Assembly (NCBI GenBank): GCA_035490055.1
Contig: DATHIB010000164.1
Location: 29,380-93,379 of the forward strand
DNA: 64,000 nt
Direction of reading: 5' to 3'
Origin: Candidatus Limnocylindria bacterium
GTDB taxonomy: Bacteria > Acidobacteriota > Terriglobia > Acidiferrales > UBA7541
Shown: positions 960 through 30,031 of the stretch, in pieces
How positions within the stretch are numbered: the first letter of the stretch is position 1
Layout: every line of letters begins with the position of its first letter
The notes under the pieces: generated by a model
The model's database searches: none
What the model was told of the DNA's origin: nothing
The model's input: the letters and a program-made list of their open reading frames with translations, nothing else
Position numbers and translations under genes: made by a program

Positions 960-2912
960 TCAGGAATGTCTGGCGAAGACTACCTGCGGTGTGCGGACTG
1001 ATTCCCACTCATTGCCATCCAGAACAATCTGACACCAGAGTTCCAGCATGACGAGTGCAAACAAATGATCCGTGTGATCCGTGCGCTCAGCGCCATGGTC
1101 GGAAATCAGCCGCTGAATCGCCGGCCAGTGGAACAGTCCGCGGTGGCGAATTTGATCTTCGGAAAGCAGTTCAGAAACCATCGGCTGGAGATCCTTGCGA
1201 AGCCAGGCGCCGATCGGTGCGCCAAACCCACGCTTCTTTCGCTTCAGGATTTCGCGGGGCAGCCAGGGCGCTACCGCCTTTTTCATCAGATACTTCATGG
1301 TGAAGCCGCGGACTTTGAACGATGAAGGCATGCGAGCCATCAGTTCGACCAGTTCGTAATCCACCAGCGGTGCGCGGCATTCGAGGGACGCCGCCATGCT
1401 CATGCGATCGGTCATGGCCAGGAGATCATCCGGCAGGGAAGTCTTCAAATCCGCGTAAAGGATACGATTGAGGCTATCCGGATCAGTGCAGCGGGTGAAG
1501 CAGCCTTGGAGAGCAGCCGCGGCCAGATTCGAGACGCGAGAGTCCGTCGACGTTGCGTGCCGGAGTAGTTCGTGCTGCACTTGGGGAGCAAAGAGGGTGG
1601 CGTAGGCCATATAGCGCGAAGCGGGCTCAAGCTCGGCTGACTTCACGAATGCCGCGGCATACCGCGCATAGTCTTTCCAGGTGGAGTGGCGGTCCTGGGG
1701 TATCCGATCGAGCAGCGCTGGAAGCCATTTCCTGCGCAGGGGTCCGGGAAGGAAACTGTAATAGCGCATCAGACTGTTGCCGAGGTAACGACGGTAGCCG
1801 CCGAAGAGCTCGTCGCCTCCCACGCCCGAGAGAATCACCGTTACGCTTTCGCGCGCGAGCCTTGAAACGAGATAGGTGGTGAGACATGCGGAGTCGGCCA
1901 CGGGCTCATCGAGATGCCAGACAAGCTTCGGCAGGAGTTCGCTAACGGCGGGCCGCACCACGATCTCGTGATGGTCGGTGTTGAAAGCTTTTGCGACCAC
2001 ACTCGCGTACGGGAGCTCGTTGTAGTAGCTGTGCTCACCCTGATACCCAATCGAGTAAGTCTTCACGGGTCGGCCGGTCAGACCCGCCATTACCGCCACG
2101 ATGGTGCTTGAATCCAACCCGCCGCTCAGGAACGCACCGAGCGGCACGTCGCTGACCAATTGCATACGCACCGCTTCTTGAATCTTGACGCGAATTTGTT
2201 CGATCCATTCCTCTTCGCTGTGCTTTTCGGGCTGGCCAAAGGGCACATCCCAGTATTGGCGGATTTCTGTGCGGCCTTTTTCGGCGACGAGATAGTGGCC
2301 AGCTGGCAGCTTCTCCATTCCTTCAAGCAAGCACAACGGGGCGGGAACATAGCCTAGCGCAAGGTACTCTTCGAGGGCGGCGTGGTTCAAACGCCGCGGA
2401 ACATCCTGTACCTGCAAAATGGACTTCAGTTCCGACGCAAAGAGGAGCCGCCCTGGTTCGCGGCGGATATAGAGCGGCTTTTCGCCGACGCGGTCACGGC
2501 CAAGGACGAGACGTTCGAGTTTGGCATCCCAGATCGCGAGGCCAAACATCCCGCGAAGGCACTTGAAGAATTCAAGACCCTCTTGTTCGTAGAGATGGAC
2601 GATCACTTCGGTGTCGGTGAGCGTGCGGAAAATATGGCCTTTTGTCTCCAACTCGTCCCGGAGCGATTGGAAGTTGTAAATCTCACCATTGAGAACGATC
2701 CAGATGCTCTCATCCTCGTTGCTGATGGGCTGGTGGCCGCCGGAAACGTCAATGATGGAAAGCCGTCGCATGCCCAGCCCGATGCCGCGGCCGCGATATT
2801 GGCCGAAGTCGTCCGGGCCCCGATGCGTGATGACCCCTCCCATGGCGGCGAGAATGGAGTCGGAGGGCTGCTCAGGACGGTCGAAATTCAGGATGCCGTA
2901 GATTCCGCACAT
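960..2912 (-). CDS. asnB: Asparagine synthase (glutamine-hydrolysing)-family amidotransferase, paralogue 1
   Basis: N-terminal MCGI (Cys1), HRGPD, NGEIYN, PP-loop LSGGLDSS, SGVGGDELFGGY. Confidence 0.93.
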   Translation of the reverse strand: MCGIYGILNFDRPEQPSDSILAAMGGVITHRGPDDFGQYRGRGIGLGMRRLSIIDVSGGHQPISNEDESIWIVLNGEIYNFQSLRDELETKGHIFRTLTDTEVIVHLYEQEGLEFFKCLRGMFGLAIWDAKLERLVLGRDRVGEKPLYIRREPGRLLFASELKSILQVQDVPRRLNHAALEEYLALGYVPAPLCLLEGMEKLPAGHYLVAEKGRTEIRQYWDVPFGQPEKHSEEEWIEQIRVKIQEAVRMQLVSDVPLGAFLSGGLDSSTIVAVMAGLTGRPVKTYSIGYQGEHSYYNELPYASVVAKAFNTDHHEIVVRPAVSELLPKLVWHLDEPVADSACLTTYLVSRLARESVTVILSGVGGDELFGGYRRYLGNSLMRYYSFLPGPLRRKWLPALLDRIPQDRHSTWKDYARYAAAFVKSAELEPASRYMAYATLFAPQVQHELLRHATSTDSRVSNLAAAALQGCFTRCTDPDSLNRILYADLKTSLPDDLLAMTDRMSMAASLECRAPLVDYELVELMARMPSSFKVRGFTMKYLMKKAVAPWLPREILKRKKRGFGAPIGAWLRKDLQPMVSELLSEDQIRHRGLFHWPAIQRLISDHGAERTDHTDHLFALVMLELWCQIVLDGNEWESVRTPQVVFARHS

Positions 2913-4321: not shown

Positions 4322-5596
4322 TCACCGTTCATTCCTAGTGTGTAGTTCTGCGTCAACCCAAATTTCCGCCGGCAAAGGGTGGCTGAGGAAACCCACCGGG
4401 CTCGCTGACCGGCCGTAAGCGCCGGACTGAAAGATGCCGACAAGGTCGCCGATTTCCGCGTGCGGGAGGACGATCCCGCGCGCGAGGGTATCGAGCGGGG
4501 TGCAGAGGGGGCCTACAATATCCACGGCTTCGTCCGCTGGCGCGGTCAGCTTATTCACCAGGGCTATGGGGTAATTTCGTTTGATAGTCTGGCCAAGATT
4601 GCCGGAAGCCGCCAAATGATGGTTCATTCCACCATCGACAATGAGGAATTTCTTGCCGCGTGAAATCTTGATGTCGCTGATGCGTGTCAGGTAGACGCCT
4701 GCTTCGCCGGCGAGAAATCTACCGGGTTCGACGAGAAACTGGGTGCCCTCGAAGCACCGATGGGCATCCACTTCCTCACAAAGCGTCAGCAGTCCTTTTC
4801 GCAAACAATCAAGATTCAGTTCCTGCTCATGCGCGAAGTACGGGATTCCCAGACCTCCGCCGAAATCCAGCGTGCGGAGCGGGCGGCCCAGCCGCTCAAC
4901 GACGCGCCGGGCGAGGCTCAACCCGTGGCGATACTGATTGTGCAGAGTTGCCGCATCCAGAATCTGAGTTCCGGTGAACAGGTGGATTCCGCAGAGATCG
5001 AGCGCTGGCTCGGCAAGAACAGCCTCCAGTACTTGATCGAGGATCTCTTCGTCCATGCCAAATGGCGCCGGGCGGCCACCCATGCGCATCGCTCCGCCTT
5101 CGGCTTCGGCTGCTGGATTGATGCGGACGGCAACCTGAGCGCGGCGACCAAGAGGTCGGCAAATTGTGGCGATGCGCTTGGCTTCTGTGAGCGACTCCAT
5201 GTGGATCTCACCGATGCCATTCAAGAGCACCAGTTCGAGTTCCGCTTCGGATTTTCCAGGTCCGGCAAACAAAATTCGTTCCGGTGGACAGCCCGCCTCC
5301 AGCGCTTTCCGGAACTCACCCGCCGATGCAATTTCGATCCCGCAGCCCCGGCTCAGGAAATGCTTCACAACGGCAAGACAAGGATTGGCCTTAATAGAGT
5401 AGTAGATGGCGAAGCGTTCCGGAAGAGTGGTACGAAGCGCGTCATACTTCAGATCCAGCACGGCACGGTCATAAACAAACAGCGGTGTGCCGTAGGATTC
5501 CACGAGTTGATTGACCGGCAACTCACCGATGACCAGTGACTTCCCAGACTTCGGGAAATACTTCGCTGTCAGATATGCCGCCAGATCAGCCATCAA
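4322..5596 (-). CDS. Fold-type III PLP-dependent decarboxylase (LysA/BtrK-like; exosortase-A-associated TIGR03099-like)
   Basis: PLP lysine in YYSIKANP, plus HLFTGTQ, DFGGGLG, EPGRF, GPLCTPLD and SGAYG. Start overlaps the ligase stop (TGATG coupling). Confidence 0.88.
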   Translation of the reverse strand: MMADLAAYLTAKYFPKSGKSLVIGELPVNQLVESYGTPLFVYDRAVLDLKYDALRTTLPERFAIYYSIKANPCLAVVKHFLSRGCGIEIASAGEFRKALEAGCPPERILFAGPGKSEAELELVLLNGIGEIHMESLTEAKRIATICRPLGRRAQVAVRINPAAEAEGGAMRMGGRPAPFGMDEEILDQVLEAVLAEPALDLCGIHLFTGTQILDAATLHNQYRHGLSLARRVVERLGRPLRTLDFGGGLGIPYFAHEQELNLDCLRKGLLTLCEEVDAHRCFEGTQFLVEPGRFLAGEAGVYLTRISDIKISRGKKFLIVDGGMNHHLAASGNLGQTIKRNYPIALVNKLTAPADEAVDIVGPLCTPLDTLARGIVLPHAEIGDLVGIFQSGAYGRSASPVGFLSHPLPAEIWVDAELHTRNER

Positions 5597-7161
5597 AGCC
5601 CTTCACGGCGCCGCAACGCTGGGTAGTCCACTTTTCCGCTCGAAGTTTTCGGCAGCTCGCCCAGGATTTCAAATGTTTTCGGAACCATATAGCGGGGCAT
5701 TTTCCCCGCGCAAAAAGCAAGTAGCGCGTTGATGTCCAAGGAATTGCCGTCTTTCGATACAACAAACGCTTTAATAGCCTGTCCGAGAGTGTCGTCGGGA
5801 ATGCCGATGACGGCTGCCCCGCGTAATTCTCCGCTCTGGAAGAGCACCTCTTCCACTTCGGTGGGGCTGATGCGAAATCCACTGGACTTGATCATCGTAT
5901 CGCGCCGGCCAATGAAATACAGAAAACCGTCTTCATCCATTTTTACGAGGTCGCCCGAATAGCAAACCTTTTCGCAGTCACCCAGTTCCGGTGACAACTG
6001 CGGATTCGGCCGAAGGGCACGGGCTGTGTCTTCCGGCCGGTTCCAATAGCCGAGCGAAACCGTCGGCCCGCGGTGCACAAGTTCACCAGGCTCGCCAGGT
6101 TTGCAAAGCTGACCTTGCTCGTTGAGCACAAGAATTTCAGTGTCTGGAATGGCTTTGCCCATCGAGGTCGGCCGCCGATCGAGTTCTTCCGGCGGAAGAT
6201 AAGTCGAACGGAAAGCTTCGGTGAGCCCGTACATCAGAAACACTTTCGTTGCGGGAAGCACTTCTCGCAACACTTTGAGGACCGCCTGCGGCATTGCGCC
6301 ACCCGTATTCGTGATGTAGCGCAAGTGAGGCACCGGTTGCTTGGCGAGAGTTGCATTGGGCTGCGTCAGCAGGCTCCACAAAGTGGGCACGCCCGCGAGA
6401 CCGGTGATTTTTTCCTTGAGCAGGACCTGAACGATTTCGCGCGCAAAAATAAAATTGATGAGCACGCAGGTGCCGCCCTTTTCGAACGCGGTCATCAATT
6501 GATTCATTCCGGCGTCGAAACTGAAAGGCAGAACGGCGAGGATACGCTCGCCGTCGGTGATGCCAAGATAAGTGGAGACGATCCGGCTGCCGGCGACCAC
6601 GTTCGCATGACTCAGCATCACGCCTTTAGGCTTGCCGGTTGAACCGGAGGTGTAGAGGATGGCCGCTAGATCCTTTTCGATGCTCGTCTCGCGCCAGTCT
6701 GCTGGGAGTGTCCGGGCGCAGAACTCATCAAAAGGGTGAACCGTGAGTTGCGCCGTCACTTCTCCAGAACCGACCACCACTAGAAACTCGAGCGAGGGAA
6801 TCTGTGGGAGCACCTCAGCAAGCGAAGCGAGTTTCGCTGCCGTGCTAATCAGACCTTTCATCCCGCAATCCCGAGCGATATGCATTACCTGCTCGGCGTG
6901 CAAAAGTGCGTTGATGGGAACATAGACAGCCTCTGCGCGCGAAATGCCAAAGATGGAGATGACCTGGGGGACAGAGGCTTCCAGATAGATGCCCATTCTG
7001 TCGCCGCGGCGGAGTCCGGCGCTTCGCAAGCCAACGGCGAGTCCTTCGACGCGGCGTGCAACTTGACCGTAAGTCAGCCGCTCTTCTCCGTGTGCGAGGG
7101 CTTCTTTTTCCGGTGAACGCCTAGCGCTCTCACGCAATAGATGCCAAATCAGGAAGTCCAT
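5593..7161 (-). CDS. Adenylate-forming (ANL) acyl/aminoacyl ligase (TIGR03098-like)
   Basis: ILYTSGSTGKPKGVMLSH, MYGLTE, SGDL, GRRDTMIKSSGFRISPTEVE, PKTSSGKVD. Start placed at ATG 7161 (MDFLIWHLL) rather than 7254. Confidence 0.9.
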   Translation of the reverse strand: MDFLIWHLLRESARRSPEKEALAHGEERLTYGQVARRVEGLAVGLRSAGLRRGDRMGIYLEASVPQVISIFGISRAEAVYVPINALLHAEQVMHIARDCGMKGLISTAAKLASLAEVLPQIPSLEFLVVVGSGEVTAQLTVHPFDEFCARTLPADWRETSIEKDLAAILYTSGSTGKPKGVMLSHANVVAGSRIVSTYLGITDGERILAVLPFSFDAGMNQLMTAFEKGGTCVLINFIFAREIVQVLLKEKITGLAGVPTLWSLLTQPNATLAKQPVPHLRYITNTGGAMPQAVLKVLREVLPATKVFLMYGLTEAFRSTYLPPEELDRRPTSMGKAIPDTEILVLNEQGQLCKPGEPGELVHRGPTVSLGYWNRPEDTARALRPNPQLSPELGDCEKVCYSGDLVKMDEDGFLYFIGRRDTMIKSSGFRISPTEVEEVLFQSGELRGAAVIGIPDDTLGQAIKAFVVSKDGNSLDINALLAFCAGKMPRYMVPKTFEILGELPKTSSGKVDYPALRRREGL

Positions 7162-7207
7162 AGCGACTATTCGAAAACCCTTTCTCCTTTGATTCAGCGA
7201 TTTCTGC

Positions 7208-8422
7208 TTATACCGTGCTGTTCCGCGATTTGCCGCGTCGGAATGGACTGGCAAGCGACATGGCTGCGCGCTTCACGGCGCGTCCACCGACGTGACGCGC
7301 GATGGCCAGAACGCCCCTTGGCGTGCGGGGGTTCAGCGCCAGAATTCCCCAGCGCTCCCGCCGCTGAGACATCCAATCTTTCTTGTACGCATCGTCTCCG
7401 GACAGGTAATCCACCTCGGTGACCTTATCCACGTCCAGAGCATGCTCGAAGAGTGCCGCGGAGAGAATCGTGCCCACGGACAATTCCCCGAAACGTTCGT
7501 CATAGGCGAGCTTGTAGATCAACGCGTTTCCGTGGTGAACGATCCAAAGTTGAACTGCCGCCGGCTCGCCGTCCACGTAGATGATCCCCAGACGCAACGC
7601 TCCCATTGCCGCGCACATGCGGATGAGTCCTGGGATGAATTGCGGGTAAAGCTCAGGTTGTTTCCAGCTTGAAAGATAAACTTTCATATAGGCATCAATC
7701 GCAGCATCGAGCCCTTGCCCCCCGGTCACGATTTCTATTTTCGCTCGTCCGCTCTTTCCCAGTTTCTTTCTTTTGCGGTTCAGTGTGTTTTTCAGCACCG
7801 AAGGCAGGCTTTCCGAGTATTGTGCGAAACTCCGTCCGTTCACGGGCAGGTACCAGTTGCCAAAAGAAAAGAATGTCTGCACGATGAATCCGGCCGCCTT
7901 AAACGCTCCGACGAGTTCGGGAAATTCTGTCGAGTTGACGTCCATTGGCTTGACTTCGACCGCGTCCCAACGTGGATTTTCCTGGGCCATCGCTAATGTA
8001 AGGGCCCGAATGGTCTGGTGTGATTCACTCGCAGAAACAGCAAGGTGCGGTGCGTAAAAACAGCTGTAATAGTTGGCCAGTGCTTCAAGCTTTCGGGGAG
8101 AAGAGAATGAGTTCGAATTGCTCGAGCCGCGCATTAGCAGCATTCCTGCAGGCGTTCCTTGCCCACCTACTGCTGTGGCACAATAAATCCGCACACGATC
8201 TTCAGGGCCCATCGCGGTCTGAATGAAATTTTGAAACCAAGGCTGGGCCAAGAAGATGCTTTGACGCCCTGCTTCCTCGAAAAGATTCAGGAAAGACTCG
8301 GGTAGTTCCTCCAATCCCGAGTACACCCGTACATGAGGGGGGACTCCGGCTCCGCGCGCCGTGAAATCGGCGGGCACCGCGCCCGTAATTTGATCTTCGG
8401 TCTTTGCCAGAGGAAGGCTCAT
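7208..8422 (-). CDS. GNAT-family (CelD/BcsL-like, Fem-fold) acyltransferase
   Basis: LPSVLKNTLNRKRKKL, YKLAYDERFGELSVGTIL and VDYLSGDDAYKKDW are typical of GNAT_6/CelD proteins. Confidence 0.8.
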   Translation of the reverse strand: MSLPLAKTEDQITGAVPADFTARGAGVPPHVRVYSGLEELPESFLNLFEEAGRQSIFLAQPWFQNFIQTAMGPEDRVRIYCATAVGGQGTPAGMLLMRGSSNSNSFSSPRKLEALANYYSCFYAPHLAVSASESHQTIRALTLAMAQENPRWDAVEVKPMDVNSTEFPELVGAFKAAGFIVQTFFSFGNWYLPVNGRSFAQYSESLPSVLKNTLNRKRKKLGKSGRAKIEIVTGGQGLDAAIDAYMKVYLSSWKQPELYPQFIPGLIRMCAAMGALRLGIIYVDGEPAAVQLWIVHHGNALIYKLAYDERFGELSVGTILSAALFEHALDVDKVTEVDYLSGDDAYKKDWMSQRRERWGILALNPRTPRGVLAIARHVGGRAVKRAAMSLASPFRRGKSRNSTV

Positions 8423-8724
8423 TCACTCTTTCCGGTCTTTTTCAGGACGAACGCAGAGAGAGTGCCGAGCGTATGAAAATTTTCCGGCATCAGCTCATCA
8501 TCGCTGACCACGATCGAGAATTCGGTTTCGAGAAAGCTCACCACGTCGAGAATTCCAAGGGAATCCAGGATTCCCTTTTCAAGCAGTGCCGTGTCTTTGC
8601 CGACTCCAGACTTCCGTGCGAGCGGGAATTTTTCCAGCAGAAACGCGTGAATTCTCTGTTCGATTGAGCCTGTTGTGGTCTGATTCATTTCTTCGTCCTC
8701 GCTGCTAACTTTCTCTGTCTCCAT
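8419..8724 (-). CDS. Acyl carrier protein
   Basis: Small acidic protein with phosphopantetheine-site motif GILDSLGILDVV and C-terminal PENFHTL. Alternative start MNQ at 8688. Confidence 0.9.
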   Translation of the reverse strand: METEKVSSEDEEMNQTTTGSIEQRIHAFLLEKFPLARKSGVGKDTALLEKGILDSLGILDVVSFLETEFSIVVSDDELMPENFHTLGTLSAFVLKKTGKSE

Positions 8725-9772
8725 GCGTTAGATACCAGTGATCGGCGCCCTGATCGTCTTGGCGATTCGCCGCCCAGGGCAGGGTAAGCAAGATGACGGG
8801 AGCCGACTCCCGCGGCTGGAATCCGCAATCTTCAAGAATCTCTCGGCCGGCATGCGAGAGAAACGGAGCGCTCAAGGTGCTGACGGCTTTGCGCCGCATT
8901 ATCGTAATCGTCTCAACGAGCAGCGCCTTACTGACCGGGTCTCCTTCCGCGAACAGATCAACAACGGTCGCATCCTCTCCGGCCCAATGATAAATCAGAA
9001 AGCCACAAAGCCTGCCGTCCTTACGAGCCGTCAGAAATTGGTAGCGTCGTTGCGGATGCTGCAAGAATCGCCAATTCAGGTAATCGGCGTTGCGGCCGGC
9101 GCATACACCCATTCCGGGAGCCCACCGCTGAGTTGCAAGCGTGAACTCTTCACCGCACGGTTCGCTCTCCTCCGAAATTTTCCATGCGCTGGATCGTCTC
9201 AGGCCAGCATCACGTAAACGCAATGCCGCATTCGCAGCAACAGCCAGAGTGCGTCCGGCTGCTTTGTTAGGGACGCGCTTCTGGACCTGTCGGTCCGCTC
9301 GCAACGGCTTGGCGAATCGGATCACTGATTCCTGAGGTTCGATGCGAAGTCGTTTGTAGATTGCCAGCATCGAAGTACTGGGAAAGTCAAATACAAATCC
9401 CGCGCCTTCCCTGGAGAGATCTTCAAGAGAGCTTCTTTGCAGAGCCAGGGCGGGCCCGAGACTGCGATAATCCGGATGAATACAAAAATCACCCAGAACG
9501 TAGCCCCGCACTTCTTTTCCGTGGCGGAGGATTCGCCTGGGGAATGCTGCCGCAACTCCGATAATCATGCCTGTCTCAAACTCGCAAGCAACCCACACTC
9601 GCGCCATCCCTTCGGGATTCTTGCAGTATAACCACTCGTAACGGGCCTCGTTCGCATCCGGCGAGAGATACCTTGAAAGAAAAGCGGTAAGGGTTGTTTT
9701 CTCCCGATCGACTCCTGCGCGACGAACTAGGTTGGCCATTTTTGGGACACTTTGATTGAAGCCTGCGGTCAC
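8705..9772 (-). CDS. GNAT-family N-acyltransferase
   Basis: YEWLYCKNPEG, GDFCIHPDYRSLG (motif A), RNADYLNWRFLQHP. Confidence 0.75.
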   Translation of the reverse strand: MTAGFNQSVPKMANLVRRAGVDREKTTLTAFLSRYLSPDANEARYEWLYCKNPEGMARVWVACEFETGMIIGVAAAFPRRILRHGKEVRGYVLGDFCIHPDYRSLGPALALQRSSLEDLSREGAGFVFDFPSTSMLAIYKRLRIEPQESVIRFAKPLRADRQVQKRVPNKAAGRTLAVAANAALRLRDAGLRRSSAWKISEESEPCGEEFTLATQRWAPGMGVCAGRNADYLNWRFLQHPQRRYQFLTARKDGRLCGFLIYHWAGEDATVVDLFAEGDPVSKALLVETITIMRRKAVSTLSAPFLSHAGREILEDCGFQPRESAPVILLTLPWAANRQDDQGADHWYLTHGDRES

Positions 9773-10409: not shown

Positions 10410-11807
10410 ATGCTAAAAATTGGTGGCCAAAAGATTCCGATGACAACCAAAGTACTGATTGTTGGCGATGCATGCCTGATCGCACTCGGTCTTTGCTTGG
10501 CGATTTTGATTCGTTTACATGGTTACCACTCAGTGTTGCACTATCTCCGCCTGCCCGACATGCCCTTTCGATTTGGTATTGTCTTAGCAACATGCGGAAT
10601 ATCTCTCTATTACAATGATCTCTATGCTTCGCGTGTGGTGAATAGGCGCAGCGAGTTGTTTGTTTATCTCTTCCAGGCTGTGGGAACTGCCTGGGTCATT
10701 CTCGCGATTCTGTATTACCTAATCCCGGACCACAGTCTTGGACGGGGCATTGCTGTCCTCTCCGCGCCAACGGTACTCCTGTTCTTGCTGTGCTGGCGCC
10801 TGGTCTTGCTTGAAGCTGACTTTCTCTTGCCAAGACAGCAGCGCGTTCTCGTCGTTGGCACGGGGCCTCTCGGGATTTCTTTGGTTCGTGAGATCCTCCA
10901 CCGTCCTGAACTCCACCTCAAGGTCGTGGGTTTTCTCGATGAGCGTGGAGAGAACATTGGCAAGTCATTAGTCAATCCCGGCATCATTGGTGCGACAAGG
11001 GACCTAGAAGAGATAACCGCTCGGGAAAAGATCGATCGCATCGTGCTTTCCCTCAAAGAGAGGCGCGGTCAGACGCCCTTACGAGAACTCCTGCACCTAA
11101 AGTTCGCCGGCATAGCGGTGGAAGATGCTCACACGGTGAGCGAACAGATTGACGGACGAATTCGTCTGGAGCATTTGTCGCCGAGCTGGATGATCCTGTC
11201 GGAAGGTTTTCGCAAGTCCGCACTCTTGCTCGCCGCAAAGCGCATGTTGGATGTTCTGGTCTCGCTGCTCCTCCTGATCTTTGCCTTGCCAATGATGGGA
11301 ATCGTGGCGCTCGCGATTTGGCTGGAGTCGGGCAGTCCGATGCTCTTCCGTCAGGAACGAATCGGATTGGGCGGACGCCCGTTCCAAATCCTGAAGTTTC
11401 GCTCGATGAAGCACGATGCCGAGGAGCATGGCCCCAAGTGGGCCGCGGATGGCGATCAACGCATCACGCCGGTGGGCCGCATCATCCGCAAACTGCGTCT
11501 CGACGAGCTTCCACAGGTGGTGAACGTACTGCGGGGTGAAATGAGTTTTGTGGGGCCGCGACCTGAGCGAGCGATCTTCTGCCGGATGATCGAGACTGAG
11601 ACGCCATTTTATGCCTTGCGATATTCGGTTCGTCCGGGAATTACGGGCTGGGCCCAAGTGAAGTATCAATACGGGGCCAGCATCGAAGAGGCAAAGACAA
11701 AGCTCGAATACGATCTTTTCTACATCAAACACCTTTCTCTGACGTTGGATCTCGCCATTCTTTTTGAGACCGCGAAAGTTGTATTGTGGCAGCGCGGAGC
11801 GAAATAG
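10410..11807 (+). CDS. Priming undecaprenyl-phosphate sugar transferase (WcaJ/EpsL-type, TIGR03013-like)
   Basis: Four N-terminal TM segments, CoA-binding-like middle (RVLVVGTG), and Bac_transf C-terminus [44 protein letters not shown]. Confidence 0.93.
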
Positions 11808-19831: not shown

Positions 19832-21067
19832 ATGCAGACCCAACCTGAAATCGAACGCAATCTTACCTCGCATGCCGTCATCACCGGCACGCCTTCCGAG
19901 GATGCCAATCTTTTGCGTATTCTGCATGTCATCAGCTACATGGGCCGCGGTGGCGCAGAGATGGGTATTCTGAAACTTATCGCCGGCCTGGGCGAGGGGT
20001 TCGAACACCGGATCTGTACTACCCGTGGTTTCGATGCAGACTTTGTGCGATCGTCCTTTTCCGAGGAAAAGATGTATGTTGCAGGAAGCTCTGACCTCAA
20101 GTTGCAATTCCCGCTCTTCCGGCTGGCTCGCATCATGCGCCGATACCGCCCACATATCGTGCACGCGCGCAATTGGGGAGCGATCGAGGCCGTGGCGGCG
20201 GCCAAACTGGCCGGCGTTCCTGTGGTCATTCATAGCGAGCACGGATATGAAATCGACATGTTCGCTGGCCTGCCCATCCGCCGCCGTCTCTTTCGTCGCG
20301 CAGCTTACGCCATGACGGATGCAGTTTTCGCTGTCACTCGCGAACTGCGCAATTTTCATGCACGCCAAACGTGGATCCACCCAGAGCGCATCGGCGTGAT
20401 TTACAACGGCGTGGATACCCAGCGTTTTGCACCCCACAGAGAAACGCGGGTCGCGGTGCGCAAAGAATTGGGTTTGTCCGAAGAATCTTTCGTAGTTGGC
20501 GCCGTTGGACGATTGGTGCCGATCAAGGATCAACAGACGCTGCTCAAAGCGGTCGCGCTGCTATCGGGAACCGGGATTGATGTGCGAGTTCTGCTAGTTG
20601 GTTCGGGACCCGAGCGCGAAAAACTCCAGGGCCGGGCCACGGATGCTCTTGAAGGCCGAGTTTGTTTCGCAGGCGATTCCGACCGCGTCCCCGAGATGCT
20701 GAACGCTATGGACGTTTTCGTGCTGCCCTCGCTCGGGGAAGGGATGTCCAATACTTTGCTGGAAGCCATGGCCTGTGGCTTGCCGGTCCTCGCGACAAAT
20801 GTCGGCGGCAATCCAGAAATCATAGAAAACCACGTTAACGGCTGCTTATTTGCACCGGGAGACGCCGAATGGCTTGCAAGCATGCTGAAGCTCCTGGCGC
20901 GGGATCCAGCCCTCATTCACCAGTTGGGCACGGCGGCTAGGAACCGGGCTATCGAGTCGTTCAGCTTGAGCCGCATGCTGGAGACATACCGCAGCTTTTA
21001 TCTTGATCTCACTGCACGCCGGGGGATCGCGGCCGTAAGGACGGATACCGCACATGTGCGGAATTAG
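19832..21067 (+). CDS. Glycosyltransferase family 4 (TIGR03088-like)
   Basis: HSEHG, IYNGVDT, GRLVPIKD, PSLGEGMSNTLLEAMACGLPV. Confidence 0.9.
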   Translation: MQTQPEIERNLTSHAVITGTPSEDANLLRILHVISYMGRGGAEMGILKLIAGLGEGFEHRICTTRGFDADFVRSSFSEEKMYVAGSSDLKLQFPLFRLARIMRRYRPHIVHARNWGAIEAVAAAKLAGVPVVIHSEHGYEIDMFAGLPIRRRLFRRAAYAMTDAVFAVTRELRNFHARQTWIHPERIGVIYNGVDTQRFAPHRETRVAVRKELGLSEESFVVGAVGRLVPIKDQQTLLKAVALLSGTGIDVRVLLVGSGPEREKLQGRATDALEGRVCFAGDSDRVPEMLNAMDVFVLPSLGEGMSNTLLEAMACGLPVLATNVGGNPEIIENHVNGCLFAPGDAEWLASMLKLLARDPALIHQLGTAARNRAIESFSLSRMLETYRSFYLDLTARRGIAAVRTDTAHVRN

Positions 21068-22928
21068 CGGCATCTTCGAATTTGAGCGCCGGGAGCCATT
21101 CCCCCAGGAAGTCGTCCACCGGATGAACGAAACTATCGTTCATCGTGGCCCGGATGACGAGGGCATCTATTGCGGCGAAGGAATTGGCTTCGGATTCCGG
21201 AGGCTCAGCATCATCGATCTGGCGGGAGGCCACCAGCCAATCTCCAACGAGGACGGCCGCTTCTGGGTCATGTTGAACGGGGAGATCTACAACTATTCCG
21301 AACTGCGGCGTGAACTGGAGAGCCGCGGCCACCGCTTTGCCACACGTTCGGATACCGAGACGATCGTTCACCTCTACGAGGAATACGGTGAGGGCTGTTT
21401 TCGAATGCTCCGGGGAATGTTTGCCATTGCCCTCTGGGACTCAAAAGAGAGAAAGCTACTGCTCGCGCGGGACCGCGTGGGCAAAAAACCGCTGTTCTAT
21501 GCGGCGGACTCCAAACGCATCATCTTCGGCTCCGAGTTGAAAGTGTTGCTCGCCGCCGGCGGGATGTCCCGCGAGATCGACCGGGAAGCGCTGTGCGACT
21601 ACTTTTCGTGCGGCTATATTCCGGCGCCCAAGACCATCTATCGCGCTGCCCGCAAAGTTCGACCGGGGCACTATCTGGTGGCTTCGAACGGAAACATTCG
21701 CGAAGTCTGCTATTGGGATCTTTCCTTCGCCGAAGTGGAAAACCGCACCGAGGATGAATGGTGCGAACTACTGCGCCACGAATTGTGCGAAGCGACCCGG
21801 GTGCGCCTGATGAGCGACGTACCGCTCGGCGCTTTCTTGAGCGGCGGCATCGATTCTTCCGCGATCGTCGGCACGATGAGCCGCCTCATGAAGCGGCCCG
21901 TCACAACCTGCTCGATCGGATTTGAAGAAAAAGAATTTGATGAGGCCGGGTACGCCCGGGAAGTTGCGAATCTCTTCCATTCGGAGCATCACGAAGAAAC
22001 GGTGCGGCCCAGCGCGCTGGAGGTCATGGAGAAGTTGGTCTGGCACTTTGACGAACCGTTCGCGGATTCCTCTGCTATTCCCACGTATTACGTCTCCCGG
22101 GTGGCGCGGCGCCACGTGACGGTCGCTCTTGGCGGTGACGGAGGCGACGAGAATCTCGCGGGCTATCGCCGATACATGCTGGACTACTATGAAAACCGCC
22201 TGCGGAGCAACGTGCCGCAATTCGTGAGGTCGGCCGTGTTTGGTCCGCTCGGCCGCTGGTATCCCGCGCTTGCCTGGGCCCCGCGCGTCGTTCGCGGCAA
22301 GGCCACTTTTCAGAGCCTTTCACAAACGCCGTTGGAAGGTTATTTCAATTCGATTTCTTATTTCCGTCCCGACGAAAAGCAGCGGCTGTTCACACCAGAA
22401 TTCCAGAAGAGTCTCGGTGGTTACAACACCATCGAGGTTTTCCGCGAGCATTACAACCGCGCCGACACAGATGACCTCCTCTCGAGAATCCAGTACCTGG
22501 ACATCAAAACGTACCTGACAGACGACATCCTCGCGAAAGTGGACCGCGCCAGCATGGCCGTCTCGCTGGAGGTCCGAGCTCCCCTCCTCGACCATCAGTT
22601 GATGGAAAAAATCTCGCGCATTCCCTCTTCCCTCAAACTGAATGGCCGCTCCGGGAAGTACATTTTCAAGAAAGCCATGTCCTCCATGCTTCCGGACCAA
22701 ATCCTTCACCGCCGCAAGCAGGGCTTCGCCATTCCGCTGGGTCAATGGTTCCGCCAGGAACTCAAGGAAATGACGGAGAAAACGCTTTTCGATTCGAACG
22801 ACGGAATTCTCGATCCTGGTTTCCTCCGGAAGATCTGGAATCAGCATCAGCGCGGACACTATGACCGATCGGCGCACCTTTGGTCGGTCCTGATGTTCCG
22901 TAAATGGAAAGAAACGTTTGCAGTTTAA
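21054..22928 (+). CDS. asnB: AsnB-family amidotransferase, paralogue 2 (TIGR03108-like)
   Basis: MCGI, HRGPD, NGEIYN, LSGGIDSS, GDGGDENLAGY. Confidence 0.92.
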   Translation: MCGISGIFEFERREPFPQEVVHRMNETIVHRGPDDEGIYCGEGIGFGFRRLSIIDLAGGHQPISNEDGRFWVMLNGEIYNYSELRRELESRGHRFATRSDTETIVHLYEEYGEGCFRMLRGMFAIALWDSKERKLLLARDRVGKKPLFYAADSKRIIFGSELKVLLAAGGMSREIDREALCDYFSCGYIPAPKTIYRAARKVRPGHYLVASNGNIREVCYWDLSFAEVENRTEDEWCELLRHELCEATRVRLMSDVPLGAFLSGGIDSSAIVGTMSRLMKRPVTTCSIGFEEKEFDEAGYAREVANLFHSEHHEETVRPSALEVMEKLVWHFDEPFADSSAIPTYYVSRVARRHVTVALGGDGGDENLAGYRRYMLDYYENRLRSNVPQFVRSAVFGPLGRWYPALAWAPRVVRGKATFQSLSQTPLEGYFNSISYFRPDEKQRLFTPEFQKSLGGYNTIEVFREHYNRADTDDLLSRIQYLDIKTYLTDDILAKVDRASMAVSLEVRAPLLDHQLMEKISRIPSSLKLNGRSGKYIFKKAMSSMLPDQILHRRKQGFAIPLGQWFRQELKEMTEKTLFDSNDGILDPGFLRKIWNQHQRGHYDRSAHLWSVLMFRKWKETFAV

Positions 22929-22937
22929 AGGCACCAG

Positions 22938-24827
22938 ATGAGCGGCATTTGCGGAATCTGCGAACCGGGCCGGTCTCTGAGTCCGGCGGGCATCAAAGCG
23001 ATGCTCGCCGCTCTCAGTTTGCCGGACGAGACCGGTCAACTAGCGCCTGGCAAAGATTCCGTGGCGCTGGGTGTATCGCAGCGCTGGCACTTCCAGCAAG
23101 TGGCCAGTATTCCCGGCGTTCGTATCGCTGCAGACGCAGAACTCTTCAATCGCCAGGAACTCACAAAGTCTCTCCAAGGCGGAACTTACGATCCCGCCTG
23201 CCTTACATCCGCTGAATTGCTGGCACGCCTCTATCGAGAGCGCGGAGTTTCCTTCGTCGAACTGCTGGATGGCGTTTTCTCCTTCGCCCTCTGGGATGAA
23301 GTGCACCGCCGTTTAGTGCTGGCGATTGACCGCCTTGGGGTCAACAGTCTGTATTGGCGCAAGGAAGGTGACCGCATCCTTTTTGCTTCGCGGGTGGGAG
23401 CCATTCGCAGTACCCAGGAAGCGCAGGCGACAGTCAATCCGGCCGCACTTGTGCAGTACATGCTTTTCAGTGCCGTCCCTGCTCCAATGGTGATTTATCA
23501 GGGAATCGAGAAGATTCGCCCTGGGTTTTGCCTGGTGTATGAGGCTGGCCAGATTCGCCAGACTCGCTACTGGGATCTCGAATATCGTGAGAGCGACAAT
23601 CGGGACGTTGCCCACTGGGCGCACGAAGTCCGCGAAGGGATGCGCTCCGCAGTCCATCGTCAACTGGCCGATCTCGCTCCGGAAAATACGGGGGCCTACT
23701 TAAGTGGGGGCACGGATAGTAGCAGTGTGGTCGCCTTCATGAATGAGTATCAGTCTCCCGTCAACACCTACTCGATTTTTTTTGCCGAAGCGGTCTACAG
23801 CGAGGTCGGCTTTGCTCGCACCACAGCAAAGCATTTCCGCGCCAACCACCATGAACTTAGCCTGACTTCCCGTGATACGTACGACGCTATTCCGAAGATC
23901 ATGGAGTATTACGACGAGCCCTTCGCGAACTCTTCCGCCATTGGGGCCTACCATTGTGCCCGCATGGCACGCGAATCTGGTGTGACCACATTGCTTGCTG
24001 GAGATGGAGGCGACGAACTCTTCGCCGGCAACGAGCGTTACGCGACCGACAAGCGCTTCGCGCTGTATCAACAAGTGCCAGCCTGGCTCCGCAAGGGAGT
24101 CATCGAACCGATCGCCGCTTTGCTCCCACAAAATGAGAGCCATCTCAGTCTGCCTCGGCGCTACGTCCGGCGAGCCAACATTCCTCTCCCGCGGCGGATT
24201 TTTTCTTACCATCTTCTACTGAGCACTCCGCCGGAGGAAATGTTCGAGCAGGGTTTGCTGGAGAGCGCTCCGCCCGAAACATGGCTTGACGTTGCTGAGG
24301 GGCATTTTCGTTCCGCCGTGGCGGAAAGCGATCTGAACAGGCTGCTTTATCTCGACGTCAAGATGACTTTGGCCGACAATGACCTCCGCAAAGTGCTGGG
24401 CACTGCTGAATTGGCGGGTGTCCGCGCGCGCTTTCCGCTGCTCGATTACACGCTCGCCGAGCTTTCCGGACGCGTCCCCGCGGCGTTGAAGATGCGGGGC
24501 TTTGAAAAGCGCTTCATCTTCAAAGAAGCCATGAGGGAAATCCTGCCGCACAATATCCTTTACAAGAAAAAACACGGTTTTGGTGTGCCTGTCGCGCTAT
24601 GGTTTCTGCAAGATCCCCGACTGGAAACGCTCGTTGCGGACGTTTTGACGGATTCACGCACCCGGCAGCGAGGTTACTTTCGCCCCGCCTTTCTGGACCA
24701 TTTGCTGCGGCTGCACCGCGGCAAGGACGCCCACTTTTACGGCGAGATTCTTTGGTATCTGGTGGCCTTGGAGCTTTGGCATCGTCAGCACTTGGAGCGG
24801 TCTCTGGAGAGTGTTTGTGCGGATTGA
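22938..24827 (+). CDS. AsnB-like ATP-dependent amide ligase with degenerate glutaminase domain, paralogue 3
   Basis: Starts MSGICG (no Cys1). HRGPD is replaced by SLPDE and NGEIYN by DAELFN. The synthetase motifs LSGGTDSS and GDGGDELFAG are intact. Confidence 0.85.
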   Translation: MSGICGICEPGRSLSPAGIKAMLAALSLPDETGQLAPGKDSVALGVSQRWHFQQVASIPGVRIAADAELFNRQELTKSLQGGTYDPACLTSAELLARLYRERGVSFVELLDGVFSFALWDEVHRRLVLAIDRLGVNSLYWRKEGDRILFASRVGAIRSTQEAQATVNPAALVQYMLFSAVPAPMVIYQGIEKIRPGFCLVYEAGQIRQTRYWDLEYRESDNRDVAHWAHEVREGMRSAVHRQLADLAPENTGAYLSGGTDSSSVVAFMNEYQSPVNTYSIFFAEAVYSEVGFARTTAKHFRANHHELSLTSRDTYDAIPKIMEYYDEPFANSSAIGAYHCARMARESGVTTLLAGDGGDELFAGNERYATDKRFALYQQVPAWLRKGVIEPIAALLPQNESHLSLPRRYVRRANIPLPRRIFSYHLLLSTPPEEMFEQGLLESAPPETWLDVAEGHFRSAVAESDLNRLLYLDVKMTLADNDLRKVLGTAELAGVRARFPLLDYTLAELSGRVPAALKMRGFEKRFIFKEAMREILPHNILYKKKHGFGVPVALWFLQDPRLETLVADVLTDSRTRQRGYFRPAFLDHLLRLHRGKDAHFYGEILWYLVALELWHRQHLERSLESVCAD

Positions 24828-28852: not shown

Positions 28853-30031
28853 TTGGAACTAGCGAGAATATTCGAATTCGTCTTTTGGGTCTGTGCGGGA
28901 CTCTTGGCTTATATCTATTTCGGATACCTCGTTCTGCTGACGTTGCTAGCTCGCTTATCGGAGAAAGCTACGCCTTCGGCTGATGTTCCTGAACCTTCGG
29001 TTACTCTTCTCGTTTCCGCATTCAACGAAAGCCAGGTAATTGCCGCCAAGCTGGAGAACGCGCTTGCCCTGGAGTACCCCTCTGATCAGCTTGAGATCCT
29101 GGTGGTCTCAGATGATTCGGATGACGGGACGGATGAAATCGTTCAACAATTTGTTTCTCAATCGAATGTGCGCTTGATCCGCCAGCATCCGCGCATGGGA
29201 AAGACGGCTGGCCTCAATCTTGGAGTTCCTCAGGCAAAGGGTCAAGTCCTCGTCTTTTCGGACGCCAACGCCCTCTACCAATCGGACGCGATTCGGCGTC
29301 TCGTGCGACATTTTTCAAACCCCAAGGTGGGGTATGTCGTGGGGAACGCAAGGTACTGCGAAAAAAACACGGAATCGTCTTCAGCAGAATCCGAGGGGCT
29401 CTATTGGAAACTCGAGACGTATTTAAAGAAAAAGGAATCTCTCTTTGGCTCAGTCGTTGGCGGCGATGGCGCGATTTATGCTATCCGGCGTGAATTGTAC
29501 TCGCCACTCTTGCCCACCGACATCAACGACTTCTTGAACCCGCTTCAGATTATCGCTCGCGGTTACACCGGTGTGTTTGAGCCGGCAGCGGTGTGTTACG
29601 AGGAGGCCGCTGAGAATTTCAGCCAGGAATATCGCCGCAAAGTCCGGATCATCAGCAGGAGCTTGAACGCCCTGCGGCGCATCCCTTCCGTGCTGAATCC
29701 ATTGAACAACACGCGACATTGGTTTCTATTGGTTTCGCACAAACTGCTGCGCTGGTTCGCGCCATTCTTCATGATATTGCTATTTGTTTCGAGTCTCGCG
29801 CTCTTGCAGTTTCCGGTCTATCGGGCCGCTGCGTTGTTGCAAGCCATTTTTTACGGTATGGCGCTGGTAGGCTGGCTGTGGAAGCCGCAGAAGCTCGGAA
29901 AGATTTTCTCCCTGGTCTTTTATTTTTGTATGGTCAATCTTGCGTCGCTGGTCGGCTGTGTGAAGTGTTTTCGAGGCGACCTTTCAAGGCAATGGGCGCC
30001 GCCACGGCAAAAGGTGCAGAATCAAACATAG
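28853..30031 (+). CDS. Membrane glycosyltransferase family 2 (IcaA/PgaC-like)
   Basis: N-terminal TM, VSAFNES, VVSDDSDD, FSDAN, GDGAIYAIRR, RKVRII, C-terminal TMs. TTG start at 28853 preferred over the 28415 extension. Confidence 0.85.
   Translation: MELARIFEFVFWVCAGLLAYIYFGYLVLLTLLARLSEKATPSADVPEPSVTLLVSAFNESQVIAAKLENALALEYPSDQLEILVVSDDSDDGTDEIVQQFVSQSNVRLIRQHPRMGKTAGLNLGVPQAKGQVLVFSDANALYQSDAIRRLVRHFSNPKVGYVVGNARYCEKNTESSSAESEGLYWKLETYLKKKESLFGSVVGGDGAIYAIRRELYSPLLPTDINDFLNPLQIIARGYTGVFEPAAVCYEEAAENFSQEYRRKVRIISRSLNALRRIPSVLNPLNNTRHWFLLVSHKLLRWFAPFFMILLFVSSLALLQFPVYRAAALLQAIFYGMALVGWLWKPQKLGKIFSLVFYFCMVNLASLVGCVKCFRGDLSRQWAPPRQKVQNQT

Follow-up and report, generated by a model that had tools for sequence, protein, structure and literature searches.

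A cassette of seven genes on the minus strand of a 64,000-nucleotide stretch of acidobacterial DNA (assembly GCA_035490055.1, contig DATHIB010000164.1, positions 29,380 to 93,379; the whole stretch is called the window below) appears to serve the tailoring of an exopolysaccharide (EPS) with aminoacyl groups that are built on an acyl carrier protein (ACP) and passed by a tandem-GNAT acyltransferase to an amino sugar of the EPS, a reading that is held, as a whole, with moderate confidence. Greater confidence goes to its core, in which an acidic amino acid is likely loaded on the ACP by an ANL ligase and then decarboxylated on the carrier by a pyridoxal phosphate (PLP) enzyme, a view to which homology, the conservation of pocket residues, shared gene order and fused genes lend good support; the transfer to an EPS amino sugar by the tandem GNAT is plausible. 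Bacteria of soil, sediment and activated sludge very often carry exosortase/PEP-CTERM loci, whose accessory genes have for the most part no described chemistry. The families of this ligase and decarboxylase, TIGR03098 and TIGR03099, have so far carried the sole label “exosortase A system-associated”, and the cassette in the window is one more instance of a widespread, uncharacterised set. Carrier-tethered decarboxylation of amino acids has come so far from the antibiotic pathways of butirosin, vicenistatin and fluvirucin. If the reading is true, it would be a widespread route for placing primary amines on bacterial surface polysaccharides, and the added amines would alter polymer charge, adhesion and flocculation. 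The proposed function is amenable to an in vitro test with three proteins, the ligase, the ACP and the decarboxylase.

The seven open reading frames (ORFs) between positions 960 and 9772 form one coupled operon, in which neighbours overlap or lie 7–46 nt apart and the ligase and decarboxylase genes share a 4-nt overlap. Scans for promoters and terminators gave nothing above chance level. An original prediction, made from the letters of the window alone, had described a tightly packed set in the order GNAT-ACP-GNAT-ligase-decarboxylase-GT4-AsnB, and all of these ORFs are indeed present (Table 1), as are the motifs that it named: LDSLG in the ACP, SGSTGKPKG, YGLTE and SGK in the ligase, and YYSIKANP with the PLP-binding Lys69 in the decarboxylase.

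The ligase is a member of TIGR03098, with a score of 643.6 bits against the curated cut-off of 592.35 and with positions 2–515 of the 517-position model covered. Alignments with most homologues begin at residue 32, which makes Met32 (7161) the probable start of the protein. The best matches of the full-length protein in the PDB were adenylation (A) domains of nonribosomal peptide synthetases (NRPSs) and VinN, with DltA also among the matches, and a query limited to the pocket region (motifs A4–A6) placed VinN at the top with 96.9 bits, LgrA reaching 65.9 bits. The alignment with VinN runs across the β13–β14 loop without a gap and with the same loop length (YGLTEAFRSTYLPP in the ligase, YGQTECKRISIMPP in VinN), and that with the α-amino-acid domain of LgrA has a two-residue gap precisely at this loop. 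The A-domain aspartate of the FSFDAG motif, D247, is the counterpart of VinN D230, and R349 that of VinN R331. In VinN, where the β13–β14 loop is shortened, D230 binds the β-amino group of 3-methylaspartate and the key loop residues are K330 and R331 (reviewed in PMC11253843). The ligase of the window therefore has the marks of a VinN-type enzyme, namely an amine-binding aspartate, a basic residue in the shortened β13–β14 loop and an adjacent stand-alone ACP.

Among 70 homologues of 57–94% overall identity, the residues D247, A248, N251, T291, W293, T315, N316, T317, M341, F348, R349, S350 and K541 show no variation or almost none, which argues for one fixed ligase substrate. The pocket fits an amino-dicarboxylic acid activated at its side-chain carboxyl, a mode of activation that is proposed because it is the sole way to leave the α-amino-acid end free for a PLP decarboxylase. 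Aspartate is favoured as the substrate because the loop geometry matches that of VinN and because minimal cassettes occur without an amine-protecting enzyme. By our chemical reasoning, a 4-aminobutyryl thioester would need its amine protected against lactam formation and a β-alanyl thioester would not. Glutamate keeps its place as a candidate because of the BtrK precedent. The original prediction of a ligase for an amino-diacid (Glu or Asp) thus survived as regards an amino-acid-activating enzyme with a basic pocket residue, but the loading enzyme is an ANL protein with a VinN-type pocket and not a BtrJ-type ATP-grasp enzyme.

The decarboxylase had also been likened to BtrK beforehand, and the evidence supports an enzyme that is BtrK-like and not LysA-like. 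Against all PDB sequences, the best matches were the BtrK entries 7ru7/2j66 (E 1.7e-83, 284 bits), with diaminopimelate (DAP) decarboxylases at no more than 169 bits, and the BLASTP identity was 39% to BtrK and 30% to the LysA of the same genome, which is a bona fide LysA encoded on another contig (TIGR01048, 430.9 bits, above the cut-off). In an alignment of 157 BtrK-like representatives with seven acidobacterial LysA sequences, the catalytic residues K69, G246–248, E290, R293, C365, D369 and Y394, which are common to both groups, are kept. All seven columns that separate the BtrK clade from LysA carry the BtrK-type residue in the window enzyme (e.g., CTP as opposed to CES in LysA), and all five residues that are invariant in LysA are missing from it. 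In a FastTree phylogeny, it falls in a clade of 22 rows (support 97) together with the decarboxylase half of P0129, a natural fusion protein described below. The enzyme is thus closer to BtrK than to DAP decarboxylases, lacks the substrate residues of the latter and can be placed, on these sequence traits, among the BtrK-type decarboxylases, with a predicted ACP-bound substrate. A role in lysine synthesis is very unlikely, given the BtrK-type residues, the PDB ranking and the separate LysA.

The same gene content recurs widely. A scan with one genome per species found 80 related loci, 67 of them with full flanks, whose ORFs were mapped by BLAST and by profiles built from the window proteins. 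Among the 67 full loci, the decarboxylase is adjacent to the TIGR03098 ligase in 66, the neighbour expected of a TIGR03099 protein, and the ACP is present upstream of the ligase in 62, in each case together with both ligase and decarboxylase, which bears out the earlier view that a dedicated ACP is linked to the set; the earlier placement of the set in a polysaccharide locus is supported as well. The tandem GNAT is found in 57, the GT4-like gene downstream of the decarboxylase in 51, a PF13480 GNAT at varying positions in 32, AsnB in 26, an inserted DegT-type sugar aminotransferase in 17 and an ATP-grasp gene in seven. Gene content repeated to this extent means that the gene order is not due to chance. 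The slot between ACP and ligase is taken either by a PF13480 protein, as in the window, or by a second tandem-GNAT paralogue, so that the PF13480 GNAT is an accessory and variable partner. In 48 of the 80 related loci, a priming glycosyltransferase of the XrtA type diverges from just upstream, as in the window. Ligase and decarboxylase are even fused in three proteins (P0129, P0233 and P0247, from a library of 50%-identity representatives), and P0129 has the same TEAFRS loop as the window ligase. In a sample of 301 genomes from the phylum, all three that bear the decarboxylase have the ACP and ligase alongside. Genome-wide co-occurrence of ligase and decarboxylase in those 301 genomes was dropped as a test, since four or five candidates scored per genome and ANL ligases are numerous. 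One genome (G015) seemed to be ligase-negative in the family search because its ligase gene (contig C26, locus L122, 7153–8812) is split into two overlapping frames by a frameshift or an assembly error. A PIG-L deacetylase, considered as a fixed partner by a logic like that of mycothiol, was absent within 10 kb in all 80 related loci.

The carrier protein matched the NCBIfam type II carriers AmcB (3.9e-11), AsbD and the OlsHI ACP, and all 75 homologues compared keep Asp54-Ser55 of its LDSLG motif. Fold searches were applied to the tandem GNAT and the glycosyltransferase because sequence searches of the PDB gave nothing useful, the GT4-like protein having no useful match there. An AlphaFold2 model of the tandem GNAT (mean predicted local distance difference test score, pLDDT, 91.7, from an alignment of 48 homologues) has two tandem GNAT domains, whose nearest solved folds are Eis-like acetyltransferases (2hv2, 3n7z, 2i00 and 2ozg) and N-myristoyltransferases, enzymes that move an acyl group from a pantetheine thioester to amines; a motif R-x-x-G-x-A (R103, G106 and A108) is conserved. 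The AlphaFold2 model of the GT4-like protein (pLDDT 91.2) has a GT-B fold nearest to MshA (3c4q), GlgM and BshA. From these two folds and the neighbourhood, the tandem GNAT emerges as the foremost candidate for the N-acyl transfer that off-loads the ACP, with a sugar amine as a plausible acceptor. The AsnB-like protein has an intact Cys2 in its N-terminal MCGI and scored 586.7 bits with TIGR03108, below the cut-off of that model. It is one of three AsnB-type paralogues in the window (960–2912, 21054–22928 and 22938–24827), of which the one at 21054 passes the TIGR03108 cut-off and the one at 22938 matches the models only from about residue 60.

Profile scans of the window ORFs placed an EPS locus of the XrtA/PEP-CTERM type on the plus strand from 10410 on, divergent from the operon. 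After the TIGR03013 gene come an export protein, a chain-length determinant, an ATPase, a tyrosine kinase and a FemAB-family protein (TIGR03019), and the locus also holds stp2 and stp3 glycosyltransferases, two more AsnB paralogues, an O-antigen-ligase-like protein and deacetylases, with a CDP-sugar and ABC-transporter block beyond the EPS genes. In the window, TIGR03013, TIGR03019, TIGR03097, TIGR03006 and one copy of TIGR03108 exceed their own cut-offs, and TIGR03027, TIGR03007, TIGR03015, TIGR03088 and TIGR04063 are best matches that fall below theirs. The XrtA exosortase itself (TIGR03109, 279.6 bits, above the cut-off) lies outside the window at 29401–30174 of contig C208, which carries the true lysA as well. 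With XrtA in the genome and the system-specific EPS families clustered in the window, the locus belongs to the XrtA/PEP-CTERM EPS system. The close relatives of the proteins, all of at least 72% identity, come from metagenome-assembled genomes of Acidobacteriota (Terriglobia; Candidatus Acidiferrales/Acidoferrum).

Table 1. Genes of the putative aminoacyl cassette and the first gene of the neighbouring EPS locus (window coordinates).
Feature	Position	Strand	Family or basis
Tandem-GNAT acyltransferase, 355 aa	8705-9772	-	PF13527
Stand-alone acyl/aminoacyl carrier protein (ACP), 101 aa, phosphopantetheine Ser55	8419-8724	-	NCBIfam type II carrier matches
PF13480 (FemX/CelD-like) GNAT-family protein, 404 aa	7208-8422	-	PF13480 1.3e-29
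ANL adenylating ligase	5593-7254 (probable start 7161)	-	TIGR03098; PF00501/PF13193
BtrK-like fold-type III PLP decarboxylase	4322-5596	-	PF02784 + PF00278; TIGR03099-like
GT-B (GT4-like) glycosyltransferase, 453 aa	2920-4281	-	weak PF13579/PF13439 + fold
AsnB-like glutamine amidotransferase, 650 aa, final operon gene	960-2912	-	TIGR01536 486.8 bits
XrtA/PEP-CTERM-type priming glycosyltransferase, first EPS-locus gene	10410-11807	+	TIGR03013 457.8 bits, above cut-off

Put together, these features point to a pathway of three steps. In the first, for which homology argues strongly, the ligase would adenylate the side-chain carboxyl of L-aspartate or L-glutamate and thioesterify it onto holo-ACP, and the α-amino and α-carboxyl groups of the bound amino acid would remain free. 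In the second, for which homology argues with the same strength, the BtrK-like decarboxylase would strip the α-carboxyl from the ACP-bound substrate. The product would be β-alanyl-ACP if aspartate is loaded, an outcome that is modestly favoured, or 4-aminobutyryl-ACP if glutamate is, which seems rather less likely. In the third step, proposed from context, the tandem GNAT would use the aminoacyl-ACP as donor to N-acylate the amine of a sugar intermediate in the cytoplasm, be it a nucleotide sugar or a lipid-linked repeat unit, which the MshA/BshA-like GT-B protein may supply or extend. Like VinM or BtrJ, the PF13480 GNAT may serve to add or cap a second residue, and a carboxylate is the probable target of amidation by the AsnB-like enzyme. 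The net outcome would be a surface polymer that bears an ω-aminoacyl substituent with a primary amine and that may be cationic or zwitterionic, as originally proposed. It is also conceivable, if decidedly improbable, that the ω-aminoacyl amine on the glycan or its lipid-linked precursor is the nucleophile that resolves the XrtA acyl-enzyme, such that PEP-CTERM proteins become covalently anchored to the polysaccharide. That arrangement, if true, would match, in Gram-negative bacteria, the cross-bridge that FemABX enzymes build and sortase uses, with the FemAB-family gene (TIGR03019) in the same locus.

Several observations weigh against this pathway or against parts of it. In the ligase pocket, the equivalents of VinN F231, S299 and K330 are Ala248, Thr317 (a placement uncertain by one position) and Phe348, so that F231 and K330 are both replaced; the Shinella ligase has a tyrosine at the position equivalent to 248. 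As far as the pocket features can be interpreted, they suit aspartate and glutamate alike. The decarboxylase narrowly misses the TIGR03099 cut-off of 478.45 with its 452.3 bits, although this is its best-scoring family and the model is covered in full (2–398 of 398), and it is treated as a divergent acidobacterial member. BtrK sits in a separate small clade (support 99) of a tree with a weak backbone, and the two enzymes are therefore relatives and not sisters; the phylogeny that had been suggested as a check thus did not place the window enzyme next to BtrK itself. The acceptor and the transferase are assigned by inference, and a sequence search of the PDB with both GNATs found no solved relative of either. 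In addition, acylated ACP was reported as the product of a related ligase–ACP pair of S. meliloti, which was read as a fatty-acyl system (PMC7232532).

The distribution of the cassette bears on the nature of the acceptor. In Planctomycetaceae SH248 (L105), the ACP, ligase, decarboxylase and a GNAT-like gene form a set of four that is surrounded by unrelated genes and lies outside any EPS locus, and in the proteobacterial copies examined the partners are hypothetical proteins, alpha/beta hydrolases or ATP-grasp proteins instead of GNATs, which also counts against a single scheme, since the differing partners and the planctomycete copy mean that the acceptor need not be identical everywhere. On the S. 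meliloti megaplasmids (27 records), for example, the order is hypothetical protein, ligase, decarboxylase, carrier protein, GT2 and CE4 deacetylase, with the ligase and the decarboxylase both annotated as “exosortase A system-associated”, and in Shinella a hypothetical protein, ACP, ligase, decarboxylase and a sugar-transfer ATP-grasp protein (ATPgrasp_ST) adjoin a flippase, a deacetylase and an alpha/beta hydrolase. Because these sets and that of SH248 share the core and differ in their partners, ACP-ligase-decarboxylase is a portable core with lineage-specific partners, and the GNAT version is the acidobacterial variant. The same first two steps could accordingly serve a different end, in which the group goes to a lipid, a PEP-CTERM protein or a small secreted metabolite instead of a polysaccharide. 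Such an end would suit SH248, where the core and its GNAT have no EPS genes nearby, and the roughly 30 of the 80 related loci that lack XrtA-type assembly genes within 10 kb, as well as the N-myristoyltransferase-like and Eis-like folds, which acylate protein or small-molecule amines. It is nevertheless considered unlikely, as the EPS module for priming and export directly adjoins the cassette in the window and in 48 of the 80 loci, a GT-B glycosyltransferase is co-operonic in 51 of the 67 full loci and sugar aminotransferase genes are inserted in 17 of them, and even the proteobacterial copies lie among glycosyltransferase, flippase and deacetylase genes.

A small chance is likewise given to the possibility that the ω-amino acid is first extended or capped on the ACP, as a dipeptidyl or N-acyl derivative, with one GNAT as the builder and the other as the transferase. 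The ACP is flanked by two GNAT-fold genes, the slot between ACP and ligase is occupied by a FemX-like PF13480 protein or a second tandem GNAT, and an ATP-grasp gene follows the ACP in several loci, as ATPgrasp_ST follows the decarboxylase in Shinella. Alanine capping by VinM and γ-glutamylation by BtrJ are steps of this kind, and known pathways protect the amine in this way (PMC11284099). Many loci, however, among them minimal sets (L105, and genome G244 in L124), have one GNAT and no ATP-grasp, and capping is therefore not obligatory; on the chemical argument given above, moreover, a β-alanyl thioester would need no such protection. The idea that the likenesses mislead, such that a fatty or organic acyl-ACP ligase stands beside a soluble decarboxylase of the DAP/Orn/Lys type and the GNAT acylates a free amine, is in keeping with the database names (acyl-CoA ligase, diaminopimelate decarboxylase) and with the fatty-acyl interpretation of the S. 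meliloti pair but is extremely improbable, given the amine-binding aspartate and the VinN-type arginine and loop of the ligase, a decarboxylase that is without the substrate residues of LysA and groups with BtrK-like enzymes, the true LysA elsewhere in the genome, the natural ligase–decarboxylase fusions, the VinN TECKR loop of the S. meliloti 1021 ligase that lies beside AsnB and ACP and is probably SMb20650, and the inability of SMb20650 to replace FadD (PMC7232532).

The survey of related loci also brought to light a number of variants. In other Acidobacteriota there is a separate group of BtrK-like decarboxylases (L006–L031), common in one acidobacterial family, with 200–247 bits to the window enzyme, well over the genome's own LysA (125 bits) and somewhat under BtrK (284 bits). 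Five loci (L066, L072, L078, L090 and L096) have an ATP-grasp gene (PF15632-like) right after the ACP, followed by the tandem GNAT and the PF13480 GNAT, an arrangement that recalls BtrJ, the extender of the ACP-bound amine in butirosin synthesis. Six others (L075, L077, L084, L089, L102 and L111) have a second ligase–decarboxylase pair, convergent on the other strand, which lies past the GT4-like gene and a few kb downstream of the first cassette, and therefore hold two core copies each. The acidobacterial locus L123 (G288:C22:28000–46000) has a ligase with the TEAFRS loop that passes TIGR03098 with 658 bits, followed in order by AsnB, ACP and a second NRPS-like ligase. There is no decarboxylase close by, and the locus resembles a sister cassette where AsnB stands in for that enzyme. 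An AsnB-ACP-ligase operon without a decarboxylase also lies on pSymB of S. meliloti 1021 (L127, 1446625–1458112; ligase ORF 4956–6527), which is likely to be the published SMb20651/SMb20650 set. Its ligase has FDYG and the loop YGLTECKRCTYL, the same as VinN K330/R331 in the VinN TECKR loop, which suggests an Asp-type amino acid as its substrate rather than the fatty acid of the literature. Since this operon lacks a decarboxylase, SMb20650 and SMb20651 were rejected as experimental homologues and regarded as a sister set, that is, a different cassette.

Among known systems, DltA/DltC and AlmE/AlmF provide a parallel, as in both a dedicated carrier receives its amino acid from an ANL enzyme and the amine comes to decorate a polymer of the cell envelope. 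The window cassette would share with them the ANL loading of a small dedicated carrier protein and the decoration of an envelope polymer, but they involve no decarboxylation, activate the α-carboxyl and transfer the group by the MBOAT protein DltB or the lipid A acyltransferase AlmG. The cassette also resembles the TIGR03098/TIGR03099 pair, in that the ligase passes its cut-off, the decarboxylase is adjacent and the locus is of the XrtA/PEP-CTERM type; the differences are the decarboxylase score (452 versus 478 bits), the location of XrtA on another contig and the GNAT partners in the window. The pair had been described beforehand as known from exosortase loci without an assigned chemistry, and searches of the literature on the pair and on such partner genes of exosortases found no publication that assigns it.

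Butirosin synthesis was the comparison first proposed for the cassette. The decarboxylase is homologous to BtrK, the tether is a small ACP and the product, as proposed for the window, is passed to a sugar. The loading enzyme differs, as BtrJ is an ATP-grasp enzyme and the window loader an ANL ligase, and the window decarboxylase and BtrK are in different subclades. Among the seven cassette proteins, no match was found to an ATP-grasp enzyme, a BtrH-type transferase, the cyclotransferase BtrG or BtrO/V, and the cassette is thus not a butirosin pathway; the comparison holds for the decarboxylase and the carrier logic and fails for the loading enzyme and the transferase. It is the work on vicenistatin and fluvirucin that offers the better guide. 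VinN loads 3-methylaspartate on the stand-alone ACP VinL, with FlvN as the counterpart for aspartate, and VinO decarboxylates 3-methylaspartate solely as the ACP thioester (PMC11284099), much as BtrK acts on Glu-S-BtrI (PMC7857480). The seven cassette proteins had no match to a VinM-type second adenylation enzyme, a VinK-type acyltransferase, a VinJ-type amidohydrolase or a polyketide synthase (PKS), and the annotated large ORFs of the window had no second adenylation enzyme, dipeptidyl transferase, amidohydrolase or type I PKS, so that this is not a macrolactam starter pathway; in the window, the core is instead accompanied, within an EPS locus, by GNATs, a glycosyltransferase and AsnB. Nevertheless, since the loading enzyme is an ANL protein with a VinN-type pocket, the closest complete analogue is VinN/VinL/VinO (FlvN/FlvL/FlvO) and not butirosin, by analogy of a stand-alone ANL enzyme, a stand-alone ACP and a PLP decarboxylase, the last likened to VinO by its described activity and not by a comparison of sequences, such that all three core enzymes have their match.

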